Positions 3,569-60,003 of a stretch of 64,000 nt of DNA are shown here, one piece after another. This stretch comes from Candidatus Terrybacteria bacterium RIFCSPHIGHO2_01_FULL_48_17 (GTDB lineage Bacteria > Patescibacteriota > Minisyncoccia > Terrybacterales > 2-01-FULL-58-14), in contig MHSS01000002.1 in the NCBI GenBank assembly GCA_001822835.1, forward strand, positions 65,060-129,059, given 5' to 3'. Numbering within the stretch: the first letter of the stretch is position 1; every line of letters begins with the position of its first letter. The position numbers were made by a program, and so were the translations under genes. The notes under the pieces were generated by a model. It saw only the letters and a program-made list of their open reading frames with translations, searched no databases and was not told where the DNA came from.

Positions 3569-5056
3569 ATGTCAAATAAATTCTACATCACCACGGCAAT
3601 CGCATATACGAATGCGCCGCCTCATATCGGGTTTGCCCTGGAATTGGTGCAGGCGGATGTGTTGGCGCGGCTTCACGGTCTGCGCGGCGAAAAACGTTTT
3701 TTCCTTACTGGTACAGATGAGCACGGCCGAAAAAATATGCAGGCGGCACAGGGTGCCGGCAAAAAACCTGAAGAATTTGTTGATGAAATGGCGGGGCGTT
3801 TTGAAAAGCTCGCTCGCGCATTAAACGTTTCCAACGATGATTTTATAAGAACATCCGATCAAGACCGCCATTGGCCGGGCGTTGTCCAATTTTGGAAACA
3901 ACTTCAAGAATCCGGAGATCTATACAAAGCTCAATACGAAGGGCTTTATTGTTCGGGTTGCGAGGCATTCAAAAAACAAAGCGATCTTGAAGATGGCATG
4001 TGTCCTGACCACGGCAAAGTTCCCGACAGGGTGAAGGAAGAAAACTGGTTTTTCCGTCTTTCAAAATACCAAAAAGAGCTTACGCGCATTATTGGAGCGG
4101 ACGAACTTCGTATAGTGCCGGACACCCGTAAAAACGAAGTACTGTCATTTATTGCGCAAGGGCTGGAAGACGTTTCCTTTTCGCGTCCCCGAAGGGATTT
4201 GCCTTGGGGCGTTCCGGTTCCGGGCGACGACGCCCAAACTATATACGTTTGGGCCGATGCTTTAGTGAATTATCTTACCGGAATAGGGTACGGACACGGA
4301 CCTGGGGACAGGGTTCAGGGGACAGAAAGATTTGAAACATTCTGGCCGGCGGATATTCATGTTATCGGCAAAGACATCTTGCGATTCCATGCGGTAATCT
4401 GGCCGGCAATGCTGTTGTCGGCAAGATTGACGTTGCCCAAAATCCTTTTAGTGCATGGGCACATTCTTTCCGCTGGTAAAAAGATGTCAAAAACAATCGG
4501 AAACGTCGTTGACCCTTTTGCTATTGTTGAAAAATACGGGGTAGACGCAGTACGTTATTTTTTGCTAAAAGAAATTCCGACAACCGCAGACGGTGATTTT
4601 ACTGAAGACCGATTCCTTGAGGTTTATACTTCATCGCTTGCCAATAATCTTGGGAATCTGGTAGGGAGGATTGCCGCGTTGGGTAAAGATCAGGAGATAA
4701 CAGTACAGGCAGGACAGGATATTCAGGAAGTTGCAAAACGCGCGTGGGCAGAATACGAAGCGGCGTTTGCCGCCTTGCGGCTTGATGAGGCGTTGGGTGC
4801 TGTAGATAAGTTTGTCGGTTTCGGGAACGAATTCGTTGAGCGTACAAAGCCATGGGAAGGTGAGCATAATTTGCACGGTGCCTTGCCGCAGCTTGCGTGG
4901 ATGCTTGGCAATATTGCGTGGATGTTAGCACCACTTTTGCCCGAGACCGCGCGCAAAATTTTTGACCAATTAGGAATTGATCCGGGAGATACTGCGTTGT
5001 GGGAAGGAGAGAGTATTAAAATGAAAAAGGGCGCTTCGTTGTTTCCGAGGTTTTAA
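3569..5056 (+). CDS. metG: methionyl-tRNA synthetase (short form)
   Basis: Class I HIGH-like motif (PPHIGFA), KMSKT motif, and CSGC...CPDHG zinc knuckle. Confidence 0.9.
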   Translation: MSNKFYITTAIAYTNAPPHIGFALELVQADVLARLHGLRGEKRFFLTGTDEHGRKNMQAAQGAGKKPEEFVDEMAGRFEKLARALNVSNDDFIRTSDQDRHWPGVVQFWKQLQESGDLYKAQYEGLYCSGCEAFKKQSDLEDGMCPDHGKVPDRVKEENWFFRLSKYQKELTRIIGADELRIVPDTRKNEVLSFIAQGLEDVSFSRPRRDLPWGVPVPGDDAQTIYVWADALVNYLTGIGYGHGPGDRVQGTERFETFWPADIHVIGKDILRFHAVIWPAMLLSARLTLPKILLVHGHILSAGKKMSKTIGNVVDPFAIVEKYGVDAVRYFLLKEIPTTADGDFTEDRFLEVYTSSLANNLGNLVGRIAALGKDQEITVQAGQDIQEVAKRAWAEYEAAFAALRLDEALGAVDKFVGFGNEFVERTKPWEGEHNLHGALPQLAWMLGNIAWMLAPLLPETARKIFDQLGIDPGDTALWEGESIKMKKGASLFPRF

Positions 5057-5057
5057 T

Positions 5058-5203
5058 ACTCGCGATGAGCTTTTTCGCTTTCTGCGTTCCGCCCACCGAG
5101 CGGAACGCAGGGACTCGGCCTGCGCTCCCGAGCACTCAACGCGTTGAGTGCTCGGACCATGGCCGCTCCGGCCTCGTAACCCGCTCAAAAGCTCATCGTT
5201 CGC
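5058..5203. repeat. hairpin-rich intergenic repeat, copy A (terminal inverted repeats ctcgcgatgagctttt / aaaagctcatcgttcgc; internal perfect hairpins)
   Basis: Starts 2 nt after the metG stop; arms are near-identical to the arms of copy C (42421/42573); internal 24-nt perfect palindrome gagcactcaacgcgttgagtgctc. Confidence 0.7.
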
Positions 5204-37863: not shown

Positions 37864-37930
37864 AAGCCCGCCTCTGGCGGGAAACTCGAAATCCTAAATC
37901 CGAAATCCAAAATAAATCCAAAACAAAAAA

Positions 37931-37966
37931 TTCGTATATTCGTATCTATTCGTATTTCGTAGTATG
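37931..37966 (+). repeat. 36-nt TTCGTA-hexamer motif, copy 1 (ttcgtatattcgtatctattcgtatttcgtagtatg)
   Basis: Near-identical to the motifs at 40255-40290 and 45986-46020; here it lies between rpmB (minus strand) and tRNA-Pro. Confidence 0.7.
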
Positions 37967-37967
37967 G

Positions 37968-38180
37968 TCATCTTCCCTTTTTTGCTACTGTTCTCATGCA
38001 CTGGGTGCATGTCAAAAGACGAGTGCCTATGGCAAAACCCTTATATGTATACGGCAGCCGTAACCATTGGAGGTTTGGTTTTCTGTGAACAATTTTAGTG
38101 GGGTTATAGTGACCTCGGAGAAGTTTTCGTTTTCCACCCTTTAACCTCCCTTTGCCACATAATGCGCATTTTTTTTCCAT
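37968..38180 (-). CDS. rpmB: 50S ribosomal protein L28 (bL28)
   Basis: 70 aa, CxxC...CxxC zinc-ribbon L28 pattern with NP...NLQ core. Confidence 0.75.
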   Translation of the reverse strand: MEKKCALCGKGRLKGGKRKLLRGHYNPTKIVHRKPNLQWLRLPYTYKGFAIGTRLLTCTQCMRTVAKKGR

Positions 38181-38292
38181 AAAGTTTTGGTTATTGGGAT
38201 TTGGACATTTGGATTTTATCTGTTACCCTGTGTAAGGTAAACCCTATGCCTTATCCCTTATACCCTATACCCTATACTCTCATTTTTGCAAC

Positions 38293-39933: not shown

Positions 39934-40024
39934 CTTTGGCGCTCGGGTAGCCCGCCTCGCGTCTGCAGGGGACCCTTGCGTTCCCTAAGGCCGCTTCGGC
40001 GTGCCACCGCTCGCGCCAAAGCTC
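39934..40024. repeat. hairpin-rich intergenic repeat, copy B (arms gctttggcgctcggg / ccgctcgcgccaaagc; its core is shared with copy C)
   Basis: Begins at the nucleotide after the rpsG stop; about 75-nt core about 90% identical to 42463-42546. Confidence 0.7.
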
Positions 40025-40220: not shown

Positions 40221-40255
40221 TTGACGTATACTGCTTGAAGCGTTATTGTTATAAT
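40221..40255 (+). promoter_or_regulatory. candidate sigma-70-type promoter for fusA (TTGACG-N17-TATTGT, then TATAAT)
   Basis: Same TTGACG-N17-TATT.T architecture as the candidate tuf promoter at 43274. Confidence 0.35.
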
Positions 40256-40290
40256 TCGTATATTCGTATTCATTCGTACTTCGTAGTATT
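40255..40290 (+). repeat. 36-nt TTCGTA-hexamer motif, copy 2, ending 5 nt before the fusA ATG
   Basis: ttcgtatattcgtattcattcgtacttcgtagtatt; no SD between the motif and the start codon. Confidence 0.7.
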
Positions 40291-40295
40291 TATTT

Positions 40296-42419
40296 ATGCC
40301 TCGACAATATCCAATAGAACGTCTTCGCGACATTGGCATCATTGCCCACATTGACGCGGGCAAGACAACCGTAACCGAACGGGTGCTTTTCTATACCGGG
40401 ATTTCTCACAAAATCGGGGAGGTGCATGAAGGGCAGGCCGTTATGGATTGGATGGAACAGGAGCGCGAACGTGGTATTACCATAACATCCGCCGCCACCA
40501 CTTGTTTTTGGATACCGCTTGAGTTTACCGGTCTTGTAGACCAAGCAGCGCGAAAAGCAAAAGAATTTCGGTTCAATATCATCGATACCCCGGGCCACGT
40601 TGACTTTACTATTGAAGTTGAGCGGTCATTGCGCGTGCTTGACGGGGGCGTGGTTGTATTTGATGGAGTTGCGGGGGTGGAGCCGCAGTCGGAAACCGTA
40701 TGGCATCAGGCAGACCGGTATCACGTTCCTCGTATTTGTTTCATTAACAAACTTGATCGCCTCGGGGCTTCATTTGAAAAATCGCTTGCATCAATTCACG
40801 AACGCTTAACCCCCCATGCCGTAGCGTTGCAGCTCCCTATTGGTATTGAGGATTCGTTTTCCGGCGTTGTTGATCTTTTGCTTGAAAAAGCAATTCGTTT
40901 TGAAGGGGAACACGGGGAGAAAGTAGTATATGGGGATATCCCTGAAAACATGAAAGCGGAGGTGCGAAAAGCGCGTGAAGCGCTTATTGAAAAAATTGTT
41001 GAGCATGACGATACGCTCATGGAAAAATATCTAGCAGGAGAGATGCCCTCGGTTGATGAGTTGCGCGCGGTTTTGCGAAAAGCAACCATTACAGGAAAGG
41101 TGATCCCGGTACTATGTGGCTCGGCCTTAAAAAACAAGGGTGTGCAGCCCTTGCTTGATGCGGTGGTTTATTATCTTCCGTCTCCACCCGAGCTTCCACC
41201 GGTTGAGGGTACGCACCCCAAAACCGAAGCGCAGGAAACCCGTGAGCCCGATGACAATATGCCCTTTGCCGCTTTGGCTTTTAAAGTTGCAACGGATCCT
41301 TATGTTGGGCAATTAACTTTCTTCCGTGTATATTCGGGAACCTTAGGTCGAGGATCTTACGTGTTAAATACTACTTCCGGCGAGAAAGAGCGGATTGGTC
41401 GCATTGTGCGCATGCATGCAAATACCCGAGAAGAGGTTGAGGAAATGTTTGCGGGAGATATCGGCGCAATCGTGGGACTCAAAAATACTTCTACCGGAGA
41501 TACGTTGTGTGCGCCAGAAAAACCAATTGTGCTTGAGCGTATTACCATTCCAGAACCCGTAATCTCCGTACGGATTGAACCAAAATCGAAAGCGGATGAA
41601 GAAAAACTTGGGATGGCGCTTCGCCGGCTTGCAGAAGAAGATCCCACGTTTCGTGTTTCCGGTGATCAAGAAACGGGTGATACGATTATTTCTGGAATGG
41701 GGGAGCTTCATCTTGAAATTATTGTCGACAGAATGAAACGCGAATTTTCCGTTGATGCAAATGTCGGCGCGCCACAAGTTGCATACAAAGAAACCGTTTT
41801 AACAACGGCGGAAGCGGAAGGAAAATATATTCGCCAGACGGGCGGGCGCGGGCAATACGGCCATGTATGGCTTCGGGTGGAGCCGACGGAGCGAGGATCG
41901 GGTTTTGAATTTGTTGATGCAATTAGGGGAGGAGTAATTCCTAACGAATTTATCCCTGCAGTTGGCAAGGGCGTGAAGGAGGCAATGGATAAAGGAATTG
42001 TGGCCGGTTACCCGATGGTGGATGCGAAAGTAACGCTTTATGACGGCTCGTACCATGACGTTGATTCTTCAGAGGCCGCGTTTAAAATCGCCGGCTCCAT
42101 GGCATTTCAGGAAGCAGCAAAACGGGCAAAGCCGGTTATGTTGGAACCGGTAATGAGCTTATCGGTGGTGGTACCAGAACAATTTTTGGGCGATATTACG
42201 GGGGATATTTCGTCCAGACGCGGCCGCATTGAGGAGCTTGGCGAGCGCGGACAAATGAAGGAGGTAGATTCAAAAGTGCCCTTGTCTGAAATGTTTGGCT
42301 ATGCCACGCAACTTCGCTCTATGACACAGGGAAGGGGAGCGTTTACCATGGAATTTTCACATTACGAGGAGGTGCCCGGGAATATTGCGCAGGAGATTGC
42401 GGCAGGGAAGCGGAGATAA
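40296..42419 (+). CDS. fusA: elongation factor G
   Basis: [10 protein letters not shown]1 motif, DTPGHVDF, full five-domain length (707 aa). Confidence 0.95.
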
Positions 42420-42420
42420 T

Positions 42421-42590
42421 GCTCGCGATAGCGCTTTTCGCTTTCTTCGGCTTGTCGATTTCTTGGGCGCTCGGGTAACCCGCCTCACGTCTGCAGGGTA
42501 CCCTTCCGTTCCCTAAGGCCGCTTGGCGGGCCACCGCTCGCGCCCAACAATTTTTGACCTCGTAACCCGCTCAAATCACTATCGCTCGCT
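42421..42590. repeat. hairpin-rich intergenic repeat, copy C (composite: arms like copy A, core like copy B)
   Basis: Starts 1 nt after the fusA stop; left arm gctcgcgatagcgcttttcgctttc matches copy A; right arm ctcgtaacccgctcaaa...atcgctcgc matches copy A 5170-5203. Confidence 0.7.
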
Positions 42591-42763
42591 AGAGAAATCG
42601 AGACGCTTTTCAAAACGCATCTTCTCGCGCCTAAGAATGAGGGAGGAAAAAAGAAGCCGCCGGTGGGCGGCTGTTGTTATCCCGAGCCGGGTCGAAGGAT
42701 TGATTTTTTTGATAGAAATGGTATATGATTTTTGCACGTTTAGAATTCGAAAAGGAGGATGTT

Positions 42764-45781: not shown

Positions 45782-45784
45782 ATC

Positions 45785-45945
45785 GGATGCTTGGGATGCG
45801 TCTCGAAAAGACGTGTCGCGCGCCCAGCGAGGCGCGCGCACTCTCGCTCGGCGTTGTTCTCCCGCCAACGATTAAACTTTTAGGGAAGGCGGGAACCATG
45901 CCCGCAACGCCTCCGCGAAGCTTTTCTCAACACATCCCAAGCATC
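45785..45945. repeat. hairpin-rich intergenic repeat, copy D (arms ggatgcttgggatg / catcccaagcatc)
   Basis: Starts 4 nt after the rplC stop; shares the ggaaccatgcccgc segment with copies E and F. Confidence 0.65.
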
Positions 45946-45985
45946 TGACGAGATTTTCATTTTGTCAAAGTGGCGTGAAAAAAGA

Positions 45986-46020
45986 TTCGTATATTCTTAT
46001 CGATTCGTACTTCGTAGTAT
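45986..46020 (+). repeat. 36-nt TTCGTA-hexamer motif, copy 3, ending 3 nt before the rplD ATG
   Basis: ttcgtatattcttatcgattcgtacttcgtagtat. Confidence 0.7.
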
Positions 46021-54576: not shown

Positions 54577-55848
54577 ATGTTTGAGAAACTTTTACTTTTG
54601 TGGAAAATTTCGGAATTGCGCGCAAAGATTCTTTTTGTGCTTGGCATGCTTGCGGTGTTCCGGCTCGCCGCATCGATCCCCGTGGCCGGTGTCGACACAG
54701 AACGGCTTGCTGCATTTTTCCAGTCGAATCAGCTTTTTGGCCTCATCAATATTTTTACGGGGGGAACGCTTGAAAATTTATCAATCGCCATGCTTGGTGT
54801 GGGGCCTTATATTACCGCAACCATTATTCTGCAGTTGCTGACCATGATCTTCCCGCGTTTAAAGGAAATGTATTACGAAGAGGGCGAACAGGGGCGGCAG
54901 AAATTTAACCAAATCGGGCGTCTTTTGACCGTCCCCTTGGCGATTCTGCAAGGTTTTGGTTTTTTGCGACTTTTAGCTTCACAGGGCGTTGTAGAGTTAA
55001 CACCTATCACCACCGCAGTTAACATTGCGGTCGTAGTTGCAGGAACCATTCTTTTAATGTGGCTTGGGGAACTGATTACGGAAAAAGGTATTGGCAACGG
55101 TGTTTCGCTTATCATCTTTGCCGGTATTGTGGCATCTATCCCGCAATCACTCTTTCAGTTTTTCTCAACGTGGGATCAGACAAAACTTTTTCAAACCGTA
55201 GCATTTGCGGCAATTGCAATTATTGTTGTGGCGGGTGTGGTTTTAATTAACGAGGCACAGCGGCGCGTTCCTATTGCGTATGCCAAGCGTATCCGCGGAT
55301 TTCGTATGTACGGTGGTGTTTCAACGCACCTTCCTATACGCGTAAATTCCGCTGGCGTTATTCCCATTATTTTTGCCTTGTCCATCGTGCTTTTTCCGGG
55401 AATGATAGCCCAATTTTTCACTACGGTGGATGTTCCTCAAATTGCAAGTATCGCTAATACAATTCAAAATATTTTTTCCGTAAATAACTGGACGAGCATA
55501 TTTATCTATTTTGGTTTAGTGTTTATATTCACTTATTTTTATACCGCTGTCATTTTTGATCCCAAGGAAATTTCACAAAACATCCAGCGCTCAGGCGGAT
55601 TTATCCCAGGAATTCGGCCGGGCTCGCCCATGGTAAGCCATCTCTCGCGTATTATTAACCGAACTACTCTTGTCGGAGCTTCGTTTTTGGGAATCATTGC
55701 GGTGTTGCCACAAGTGATGCAGCAGGGCTTGAATCTGCCCGCCCTCACCATCGGGGGAACGGCGGTATTGATTGTCGTGTCGGTGGTGATTGAGACGATG
55801 AAACAAATAGAAGCGCAGCTGACAATGCGGGAATACGAAGGGTTTTAG
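54577..55848 (+). CDS. secY: preprotein translocase subunit SecY
   Basis: 10-TM SecY pattern, 423 aa, canonical position after L15. Confidence 0.93.
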   Translation: MFEKLLLLWKISELRAKILFVLGMLAVFRLAASIPVAGVDTERLAAFFQSNQLFGLINIFTGGTLENLSIAMLGVGPYITATIILQLLTMIFPRLKEMYYEEGEQGRQKFNQIGRLLTVPLAILQGFGFLRLLASQGVVELTPITTAVNIAVVVAGTILLMWLGELITEKGIGNGVSLIIFAGIVASIPQSLFQFFSTWDQTKLFQTVAFAAIAIIVVAGVVLINEAQRRVPIAYAKRIRGFRMYGGVSTHLPIRVNSAGVIPIIFALSIVLFPGMIAQFFTTVDVPQIASIANTIQNIFSVNNWTSIFIYFGLVFIFTYFYTAVIFDPKEISQNIQRSGGFIPGIRPGSPMVSHLSRIINRTTLVGASFLGIIAVLPQVMQQGLNLPALTIGGTAVLIVVSVVIETMKQIEAQLTMREYEGF

Positions 55849-55850
55849 AG

Positions 55851-56000
55851 CTCGCGCAGGGCCATTTGCGAAACGCGACAATCCCCAGCGAGGATTGTCG
55901 CTCTGTCCTCGCCGCGCTCCCCCGCATACGGTTTATATTTTATAAGGAAGCGGGGACCATGCCCGCGCGGCTGCGAAGGTTCGCAAATGTCCCTTCGCTC
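55851..56000. repeat. hairpin-rich intergenic repeat, copy E (arms cgcagggccatttgcgaa / ttcgcaaatgtccct); same subfamily as copy F
   Basis: Starts 3 nt after the secY stop; about 25-nt terminal segments identical to 59705/59814; internal perfect hairpin gcgacaatcc/ggattgtcgc. Confidence 0.7.
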
Positions 56001-56099
56001 ACCCCAAAAAAGTTGCTTGGCTGCTTCATTCATTGTTTCGTAAAGAGAAGGGTAGGATAAAAGGAGACCGGCCGTGCATTGCACGGCCGGTTTTTGTTT

Positions 56100-56777
56100 T
56101 TATCCTGCTTCGTCTGATCCATCTTCATGATTTTCACCCATGATCGCTTTGAGCAGCTTTTCGGTGGGAAAGATGACGAGCGTGCCCTTTACCCATTTTT
56201 CGCGGAAATAACCCCATTGAATTAAACCATCAACGGTCCATGGGCCGTCTGACAATCGTATGAGGTCTTCCTTGGGGAATCCCGCAAGGCGGTTCCATAT
56301 ACGGCAGAGAATCATAAAGGTTTCAACAAAAGATTCATCCTCTGCTTTTCCAAGACGCAGCCCTCTTTCAAAATAGACGCTGGTTGGAGAATACCGATCC
56401 GTCCGAGAGTTTAGAGTATTTTCCAATTCTAGATCCCAAAAAGCGGCCCTACAGAAAGATTGGATGAGAACTCTTTTGCCGTGTTCGTCAATCCAGACCT
56501 CTTCCGCGTCTGTTTTTTCTGGTGCGGTTTTCCGTTTCATTTGCCTTTCTTCTTTTGTTGCGCTTTCAAGGATTTTCTGGAAGGCATCCGGGTTGCGTTC
56601 CTTCAGACGTATGACATCTGCGACGATTTTCACTTCCTCGTCTGTAAGCCCCAGCATTTGGGCTGCTCTCCCGGCTTTATTTTGGGAGCAGTGGGCGCGT
56701 TGCCCAAGCTCAACGAGAAAAGGGTTTTGCCGTAGTGCTTCCCGAATTCTTTCCGCAAGCTCTTTTTGTGAGCGCAT
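56100..56777 (-). CDS. hypothetical protein (opposite strand, between secY and adk)
   Basis: 225-aa ORF with plausible composition; no family recognised. Confidence 0.5.
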   Translation of the reverse strand: MRSQKELAERIREALRQNPFLVELGQRAHCSQNKAGRAAQMLGLTDEEVKIVADVIRLKERNPDAFQKILESATKEERQMKRKTAPEKTDAEEVWIDEHGKRVLIQSFCRAAFWDLELENTLNSRTDRYSPTSVYFERGLRLGKAEDESFVETFMILCRIWNRLAGFPKEDLIRLSDGPWTVDGLIQWGYFREKWVKGTLVIFPTEKLLKAIMGENHEDGSDEAG

Positions 56778-59345: not shown

Positions 59346-59630
59346 ATGCGTTTTTCAATACCCAAACAGCGCTATATTTTGACCACTGCGTTGCGGCGCA
59401 TCGGATATGCGCCGAGTCGCCGCGGGCAGAGTTTTGTGCGCAAACTTTCTTCAACGCCCTATCCCCAATTTCATTTATATGTGGAAGAAACCGAACGCGG
59501 ATGGGGGTTTAACCTTCATTTGGATCAGAAGCAGCCAACGTATGAGCCGGGGCGGGCGCACGCAGGGGAGTATGAGGGTGAAGTAGTGGAGCGCGAGGCC
59601 GCGCGAATACGCGCGTTTATCGATACATAA
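59346..59630 (+). CDS. hypothetical protein
   Basis: 94-aa ORF, charged; no family recognised. Confidence 0.4.
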   Translation: MRFSIPKQRYILTTALRRIGYAPSRRGQSFVRKLSSTPYPQFHLYVEETERGWGFNLHLDQKQPTYEPGRAHAGEYEGEVVEREAARIRAFIDT

Positions 59631-59694: not shown

Positions 59695-59838
59695 CACGAG
59701 TTCACGCAGGGCCATTTGCGAAACGCGCGCAGCCCCAGCGTGTCTGCGCGCTCTGTCCTCGCCGCGCTCGCCCCGATGGCCATCGGGGCACCATGCCCGC
59801 GCGGCTGCGGAGGTTCGCAAATGTCCCTCCGCTCACTC
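59695..59838. repeat. hairpin-rich intergenic repeat, copy F (same subfamily as copy E)
   Basis: Arms cacgcagggccatttgcgaaacgcg / aggttcgcaaatgtccctccgctcac; internal hairpins gcgcag...ctgcgc and ccccgatgg/ccatcgggg. Confidence 0.7.
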
Positions 59839-59976
59839 GCGGGAGGATCATAACGCGCTCAAAGTGCTACGCGCCCGCAAGAATAATCTGTTTTTCTCAA
59901 TCTTAATGCACTAGTCGCGTTTTTTCTGGAAGACGCACGTTCCTCCCTTTGTTTTTAGAGAGGAAAAGAGAAAAGG

Positions 59977-60003
59977 AAGCCGCTGGTGGCGGCTTTTATG
60001 TTT
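59977..60003 (+). terminator. rho-independent terminator (AAGCCGC-TGGTG-GCGGCTT + TTATGTTTG); same hairpin type as 42655-42675
   Basis: 7-bp stem + T-run; a homologous gaggaaaa...aagccgcNggtggNcggct module follows copy C. Confidence 0.5.

Follow-up and report, generated by a model that had tools for sequence, protein, structure and literature searches.

The structured repeat that directly follows secY in this Candidatus Terrybacteria contig (copy E) is probably a copy of a non-autonomous, selfish interspersed repeat, a GC-rich branched palindrome that has spread as DNA. The family to which it belongs spreads at the DNA level, entering the spacers between genes and, on rare occasions, the genes themselves, in frame. 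It is a dispersed repeat that gains and loses sites; the stems vary in sequence, but the fold and two unpaired motifs stay conserved. Taken together, the observations favour a mobile repeat at the DNA level over a cis-acting RNA.

Candidatus Terrybacteria is a lineage of Parcubacteria within the candidate phyla radiation (CPR). As CPR genomes are tiny and streamlined, a proliferating GC-rich repeat is unexpected there. No description of this repeat family was found in the literature searched, and at gathering thresholds no Rfam 15 family matches the element in the window (the whole stretch of DNA analysed, 64 kb in length), the sole match being a tRNA. The family is apparently uncatalogued. 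What is new is the family itself; small selfish palindromic repeats are already known as a kind. Its unusual traits are a branched conserved core, invariant unpaired motifs, GC-richness, a wide range of host GC content and the presence of in-frame copies in essential genes of CPR bacteria.

Copies in the window and their fold

An earlier note on this DNA had placed a repeat at 55851–56000, directly after the secY stop codon, and had assigned it to the same subfamily as a second copy, F. The repeat is present and slightly larger than described. The copies and their landmarks are given below; R2 denotes a covariance model made from 40 copies taken from metagenomes, with no window sequence among them.

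54577–55848, + strand: secY (Pfam SecY; 100 % match to the Candidatus Terrybacteria SecY of a Rifle aquifer genome)
55848–56003, + strand: copy E, whole element (extent of similarity to F; R2 match at 55854–56001; fold)
56063–56095, unstranded: terminator-like hairpin 60 nt beyond E, both strands having T-runs
59698–59837, + strand: copy F, of E's subfamily (repeat finder, R2 and comparison with E)
45783–45950, + strand: copy D, of a different subfamily, between rplC (L3) and rplD (L4)
5057–5203, + strand: copy G, of a third subfamily (loop CCCACCG, bulge ACCATGGCC), immediately following the stop codon of metG (methionyl-tRNA synthetase)

Copy E overlaps the secY stop codon TAG (55846–55848) by one base, its first. 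Copy F lies 3.85 kb away, about 70 nt past a 94-aa ORF (59346..59630) and upstream of a terminator-like hairpin at 59975–59997. A repeat finder reported the similarity between E and F as two families, D4 and D8, with 55848–55923 resembling 59698–59773 and 55952–56002 resembling 59786–59836. A first covariance model was made from E and F, and a search of the window with it yielded D and G. D was misaligned by MAFFT alone, and structure-aware alignment via covariance models was used instead. With filters off, R2 scored E at 121.3 bits (E-value 1e-28), F at 113.9, D at 69.7 and G at 58.6, and found no further copy across the window. Since R2 contains no window sequence, its recovery of E, F, D and G excludes chance. 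Four copies from three subfamilies, all on the + strand, are thus present within 64 kb.

The four copies share one architecture, foldable on either strand, in which P1, P2 and P3 are present and P3 encloses P4. Across the family this comprises a long terminal stem (P1), a hairpin with the loop CCCAGCG (P2), and P3 around P4, followed by the unpaired ACCATGCCC. In the model structure, P1 closes a three-way junction bearing hairpin P2 and the P3–P4 arm, so that the predicted form is a branched palindrome. In copy E the parts are as follows.

55854–55872, + strand: P1 5' strand, pairing with 55980–55998 (model structure, cmsearch alignments, P1 covariation)
55980–55998, + strand: P1 3' strand (model structure, cmsearch alignments, covariation)
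55875–55901, + strand: hairpin P2, 55875–55884 with 55892–55901 (10-bp stem gcgacaatcc/ggattgtcgc)
55885–55891, + strand: P2 loop CCAGCGA, carrying the family-conserved CCCAGCG motif
55911–55917, + strand: P3 5' strand, pairing with 55965–55971 (model structure, covariation)
55965–55971, + strand: P3 3' strand (model structure, covariation)
55920–55955, + strand: hairpin P4, 55920–55925 with 55950–55955 (stem CCCCGC/GCGGGG, 24-nt AT-rich loop; a variable module)
55956–55964, + strand: conserved unpaired bulge ACCATGCCC, between the 3' strands of P4 and P3

Folded as RNA, E reaches −66 kcal/mol on the + strand and −72 kcal/mol on the − strand (z about −3.8); folded as DNA, it reaches −41 and −46 kcal/mol, respectively. 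All of these energies lie 3.8–5.7 standard deviations below those of dinucleotide shuffles, on both strands.

The end segments that E and F had been said to share are present as quoted, and the ends are mutually complementary, forming the 19-bp stem P1 with two mismatches. It had also been proposed that each copy carries a different hairpin. The hairpins quoted do exist, but both copies carry both P2 and P4 (gcgacaatcc/ggattgtcgc in E; gcgcgcag../..ctgcgcgc plus gccccgatgg/ccatcggggc in F). Similarly, the picture of conserved ends around variable inner stems is right for P2 and P4, but the centre is conserved too, 88 of 92 aligned positions outside these two hairpins being identical (96 %). 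The P2 stems of E and F share 11 of 20 bases, with four pairs altered on both sides, and the P4 of E is replaced outright in F by a different hairpin. This contrast (96 % identity outside P2 and P4, about 50 % in P2) looks more like an exchange of hairpin modules than stepwise compensatory mutation.

Near-identity outside two hairpins, at so short a distance, would also be left by a mere recent local duplication, in which the palindromic look means nothing. This reading is contradicted by the recovery of E, F, D and G with the window-free model and by the existence of more than 130 diverged copies in unrelated contigs, and it is extremely improbable.

Several further proposals about the fold were rejected. 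Copy G, in which a G-to-C change in the loop and a C-to-G change in the bulge possibly compensate, suggested that the P2 loop might form a pseudoknot with the bulge or an internal loop, but variants L145, L162 and L202 lend this no support. A small ORF starting at the ATG of the bulge was dismissed because, by inspection, the downstream peptides are not conserved. Resemblances of ACCATGCC to loop C of 5S rRNA or the 1400 region of 16S rRNA, and of the P1 of one subfamily to the Tn3 inverted repeat, were topologically inconsistent or restricted to that subfamily, and there was no Rfam 5S match; they were taken as coincidental. Hypervariability of P2 and P4 relative to P1, as a trait of the family, amounted only to a weak trend among close pairs.

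Other repeats are found in the same window. A second long-hairpin family, with no R2 match, occurs at 39934–40022 and 42462–42546; its two copies are 92 % identical and begin exactly at the stop codons of S7-like and EF-G-like ORFs. A composite element at 42417–42592 has an outer stem and junctions that match copy G (5054–5203; D17, D20) and an interior belonging to the second hairpin family, which suggests modular or mosaic construction, or nesting. Mosaicism is visible in the window both in the E/F scaffold with its swapped P2 and P4 and in 42417–42592, with the ends of G and another interior. The repeat TTCGTATATTCGTAT..ATTCGTA.TTCGTAGTAT is present three times (37925–37965, 40249–40289 and 45980–46020), following structured repeats that interrupt ribosomal-protein operons; two of these end 4–7 nt before an ATG start codon, that of an EF-G-like gene (40296) in one case and that of rplD (46024) in the other. 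The repeat resembles a portable promoter, one that would give leaderless mRNAs. Short, AT-rich intergenic repeats of the GGATTT/GGATTTTG type lie at 2555–2589, 37890–37925 and 38169–38217, and some NifS proteins of CPR bacteria contain NSKF/QNSK-like inserts that seem to be translations of motifs like these.

The wider family and covariation of its stems

A loose pattern (CCCASCG-N44-73-ACCATGSCCGC) applied to species-representative genomes gave three real copies (L005, L086 and L025) in 67 loci scanned with the model; as a set, these come from metagenome-assembled genomes labelled Saccharibacteria, Patescibacteria and 'Eubacteriales'. A tighter pattern produced at least 120 matches in a metagenome collection. 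The set collected with R2 comprises at least 134 copies, of median length 138 nt, in at least 114 loci, amongst which 16 hold two to four copies each, in both orientations. The element is about 125–150 nt long, and longer where P1 extends. Its mean GC content is 0.58, compared with 0.45 for the rest of the locus, and is the higher of the two in 133 of the 134 copies; the hosts span 31–69 % GC. One exact pattern match in a viral contig (L241) was discarded, as R2 did not confirm it.

In an alignment of 112 copies, 85.5 % of cells pair among the matches listed, compared with 53.1 % in shuffles and 39–52 % with the partners slid. This alignment had been fitted to the model; three motifs were kept constant by the pattern used for collection, which left the stems unconstrained. 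Changes on both sides were seen at all 40 modelled pairs, in 1434 cells against 416 in shuffles, and one-sided changes were rare. Every P1 pair occurs in all four Watson–Crick types. From the model-derived alignment RNAalifold independently predicted the same four helices. The P2 loop is invariant in nearly all of the 112 copies, among the matches listed.

The earlier note had proposed selection for structure rather than sequence, to be judged by compensatory changes in additional copies. The double-sided changes at all 40 pairs are in agreement with this, and pairing kept across 112 diverged copies indicates that the structure is conserved well beyond recent duplication. A covariance model, which had been recommended for this purpose, was built and used to scan the window, metagenome contigs and relatives; it found further copies, and compensatory changes are present.

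Strong covariation would equally be produced by a host-beneficial, strand-specific RNA, such as a 3'-end stabilizer, a processing site, a protein-binding module or a multi-copy small RNA, with E acting on secY expression. The invariance of a loop and a bulge that are asymmetric between the strands also favours an RNA of this type, as do the start of E, D and G 0–3 nt after stop codons, the position of E and F upstream of terminator-like hairpins and the co-orientation of the four window copies with genes. This last point carries little weight, since nearly all genes in the window are on the + strand. RNAs selected on one strand tolerate G·U pairs but not A·C. In the 112-copy alignment, however, G·U (71 of 4325 cells) is matched by A·C (77 cells), and the mismatches look like unselected noise on stems kept Watson–Crick.

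The three-way junction, the few invariant unpaired nucleotides, the covarying stems and the many copies per genome could also suggest a self-cleaving ribozyme or another catalytic or ligand-binding multi-copy RNA; hammerhead and twister ribozymes are multi-copy in some genomes. Here too the lack of strand asymmetry in wobble pairs is contrary evidence. Nothing in Rfam 15 matched at gathering thresholds, E-value mode on E, L160 and L132 gave sub-threshold matches at chance level only, the hammerhead core motifs are absent by inspection, and there are copies in frame within essential genes. A catalytic RNA is therefore very unlikely.

Sites occupied by the element

Across the family, orientation relative to genes is random. 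By crude ORF calls, the upstream ORF has the same orientation as the element for 46 copies and the opposite for 46, and the downstream ORF the same for 56 and the opposite for 39. Copies lie in divergent, convergent and co-directional spacers, all four gene arrangements being seen, and by the same crude calls divergent promoter regions hold copies as often as convergent ones. Copies nested in inverted copies were found in L025, L215, L163 and L171, and tail-to-tail pairs in L137, L143, L210 and L165. Three contigs of the same population stop inside E, as expected since assemblers break at repeats.

Only three of the 134 copies are intragenic. They lie within conserved genes with the frame left open, in NifS (cysteine desulfurase) of L223 and L127 and in TsaD of L198, and all three are antisense to the host gene. 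The two NifS proteins are 45 % identical and have the element at the same loop. All three proteins match their family profiles in two stretches, around an insert of 45–50 residues, and the encoded peptide is not conserved save for what the nucleotide motifs dictate (SGHG). Amongst Patescibacteria NifS orthologues, the insert is present in P0241 and P0242, with a sister copy in P0244 (79 % identical), whereas P0243, 90 % identical to P0241, and P0245 are without it; 46 residues are missing in P0243, and comparison of the DNA agrees.

The earlier note had left the choice between a mobile and an RNA-structural element. The mobile alternative is favoured; the equal G·U and A·C counts, the random orientation, the antisense intragenic copies and the filled and empty NifS sites disfavour the other. 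Together with the nested and paired copies and the close relatives that lack the element at the same loci, these observations make a strand-specific RNA of benefit to the host quite unlikely.

A preferred reading frame was considered and rejected, as stop-free frames account for 53–59 % in sense and 22–35 % in antisense, and the frame used by the intragenic copies is not special. Nor is an archaeal host claimed for L223, a contig whose GuaA resembles Bathyarchaeia proteins but whose NifS resembles those of Patescibacteria. Among named proteins, the best relatives of this GMP synthase (L223 4154–5704) come from Bathyarchaeia, with 68–69 % identity, which may reflect inter-domain gene transfer or an effect of which proteins bear names. 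In other CPR lineages the NifS surface loop after EISKII.FK accommodates in-frame inserts of at least three further kinds (alignment P0241–P0357), and a second in-frame insert, IYPHTK...GVGVY, is found near the N terminus of NifS in P0244, P0330 and P0261. In-frame repeat insertion seems to be common in CPR proteins.

At the secY locus, E lies between the stop codon and the likely transcript end (56063–56095) and so should belong to the secY 3' UTR. Once transcribed with secY, it would fold into a very stable structure there. By analogy with Correia and ERIC elements, it may be conjectured that E blocks 3' exonucleases there, or that RNase III cuts the 19-bp P1 (PMC10969869). Relatives with 67–71 % SecY identity have no copy in the 21 kb syntenic ribosomal-protein region, and in one of these loci (L248) the secY stop codon is only 20 nt from the terminator hairpin. 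The gene downstream of secY in those relatives has no homology to that of the window, so the site after secY does not qualify there as a strictly empty one. In the window, the downstream gene (56100–56777, − strand) is convergent to secY and precedes adk; it has no Pfam domain and is not homologous to L248 11329–11967. In a relative with 71 % SecY identity, the post-secY space (L250 6618–6745) is occupied by another structured element, with ends of a similar style (GCTCGGACG...TCCGAGCTTCGC) and no R2 match. Within this lineage, the interval between secY and adk appears to be a site of variable insertion.

Mode of spread and comparison with known systems

No target-site duplication was found in the flanks of the 112 copies, nor in the comparison of filled and empty NifS sites, where the loop is variable and the boundaries are inexact. 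There is no common terminal sequence; many copies, though not all, end in GCTCAGG...CCTTCGC, and P1 frequently continues far past the modelled region. When 1323 neighbouring ORFs were clustered all against all, only housekeeping families emerged, with no transposase or autonomous partner. The genes between paired copies are ordinary, with no recurrent neighbour gene, and the ORFs adjoining E, F, G and D have no transposase domain. With target-site duplication, shared ends and a linked transposase all lacking, the element is without the features that define a classical MITE, REP/REPIN or attC site.

Spread as DNA of a non-autonomous repeat could proceed as follows. Propagating copies would have to fold as a single strand, of DNA or possibly RNA, and the fold would be conserved for this reason. 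The CCCAGCG loop and the ACCATGCCC bulge, both unpaired, may be read by a putative enzyme supplied in trans. The stems would be free to change provided that pairing is kept, and hairpin modules could be exchanged between copies; such exchange would explain the common scaffold of E and F with different P2 and P4. Copy E would have inserted downstream of the secY stop codon but ahead of the terminator, to be transcribed within the secY 3' UTR, in which case the −66 kcal/mol structure there would be a by-product.

The invariant loop and bulge, together with hosts of 31–69 % GC, exceed what is usual for a MITE family, and are compatible, too, with a functional nucleic acid that a conserved host factor binds. 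A more far-reaching reading, put forward here tentatively and considered unlikely, is that of a new class of structure-dependent mobile element, whose core (CCCAGCG and ACCATGCCC) would be the substrate of a putative trans-acting enzyme common to CPR and other uncultivated lineages. Such an enzyme may, for example, act by nicking and strand transfer on folded single-stranded DNA, or by a reverse-transcription route. If this reading is true, the element would be able to remodel essential proteins via in-frame insertion.

Whatever its route, the repeat breaks up ribosomal-protein operons and resides in frame inside nifS and tsaD. With R2 as a searchable model, metagenome-assembled genomes can be annotated for many 'structured intergenic' regions and for protein insertions that have so far had no explanation. 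The family also explains assembly breaks, and cautions against calling such elements regulatory RNAs. Its covarying stems and invariant unpaired motifs, with no linked transposase, raise the question of what recognizes the fold, and the answer could reveal a new mobilization mechanism.

MITEs are typically AT-rich, whereas the element described here is GC-rich, no parent insertion sequence was found for it, and its internal core is common to hosts of very different GC content. It also differs in that no target-site duplication was seen and in that the terminal inverted repeat differs between subfamilies, only the pairing being kept. MITEs such as Correia, ERIC, BOX, RUP and SPRITE are small, non-autonomous, mostly intergenic elements of many copies with stable stem–loop transcripts; some cluster or insert into one another (SPRITE), and some at the 3' ends of genes alter the fate of the mRNA via RNase III or RNase E (PMC10969869). 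In being small, non-coding and dispersed, with at least 134 copies, the element resembles them.

REP/REPIN sequences have a short hairpin of 20–40 bp, a GTAG or CGTC tag and an associated RAYT gene. The element, at 125–150 nt, is three to five times longer and is branched; by eye no GTAG or CGTC tag was noticed at its ends, and no Y1 transposase gene was found beside any copy. RAYT-mobilized REP/REPINs and palindromes derived from IS200/IS605 are described as mobile by way of folded single-stranded DNA hairpins, without target-site duplication or classical terminal inverted repeats, and as having structure-conserved hairpins and inverted doublets (PMC3337134, PMC3733652). The lack of target-site duplication, the structure-conserved hairpins and the inverted doublets are features that the element has in common with them.

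The attC sites of integrons are imperfect palindromes of 57–141 bp, defined by structure, active as folded single-stranded DNA and placed directly after stop codons. A site-specific recombination site of this kind would account for the conservation of structure over sequence, for stems that are almost purely Watson–Crick, as fits a DNA fold, and for the window copies that begin immediately after stop codons. However, the core sites RYYYAAC...GTTRRRY are absent: by inspection the ends do not fit them, those of E being GCGCAGGG...CCCTTCGC and those elsewhere commonly GCTCAGG...CCTTCGC. There is no cassette array or integrase nearby, the flanks are core genes in conserved synteny (secY, rplC/rplD and other ribosomal-protein genes, metG) rather than cassettes, and some copies are intragenic. 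An attC-like site is accordingly a highly improbable explanation.

The element behaves most like the Rickettsia palindromic elements (RPEs). These are palindromic, strongly folding sequences of about 150 bp with no known transposase, which lie between genes and also in frame in unrelated housekeeping genes, where they add a peptide segment (PMC10969869). The element is likewise a palindromic repeat of about 150 bp, found between genes and in frame in genes (NifS and TsaD). In contrast with RPEs, its hosts are CPR/Patescibacteria and other uncultivated lineages rather than Rickettsia, it is GC-rich and forms a branched three-way junction whose loop and bulge motifs are invariant, and of its 134 copies only 3 lie within genes. 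Given the hosts and the GC content, sequence homology to the Rickettsia RPE families is unlikely, and the likeness is one of kind, by description. The in-frame copies represent a second natural case, after Rickettsia, of protein evolution by insertion of palindromic repeats.
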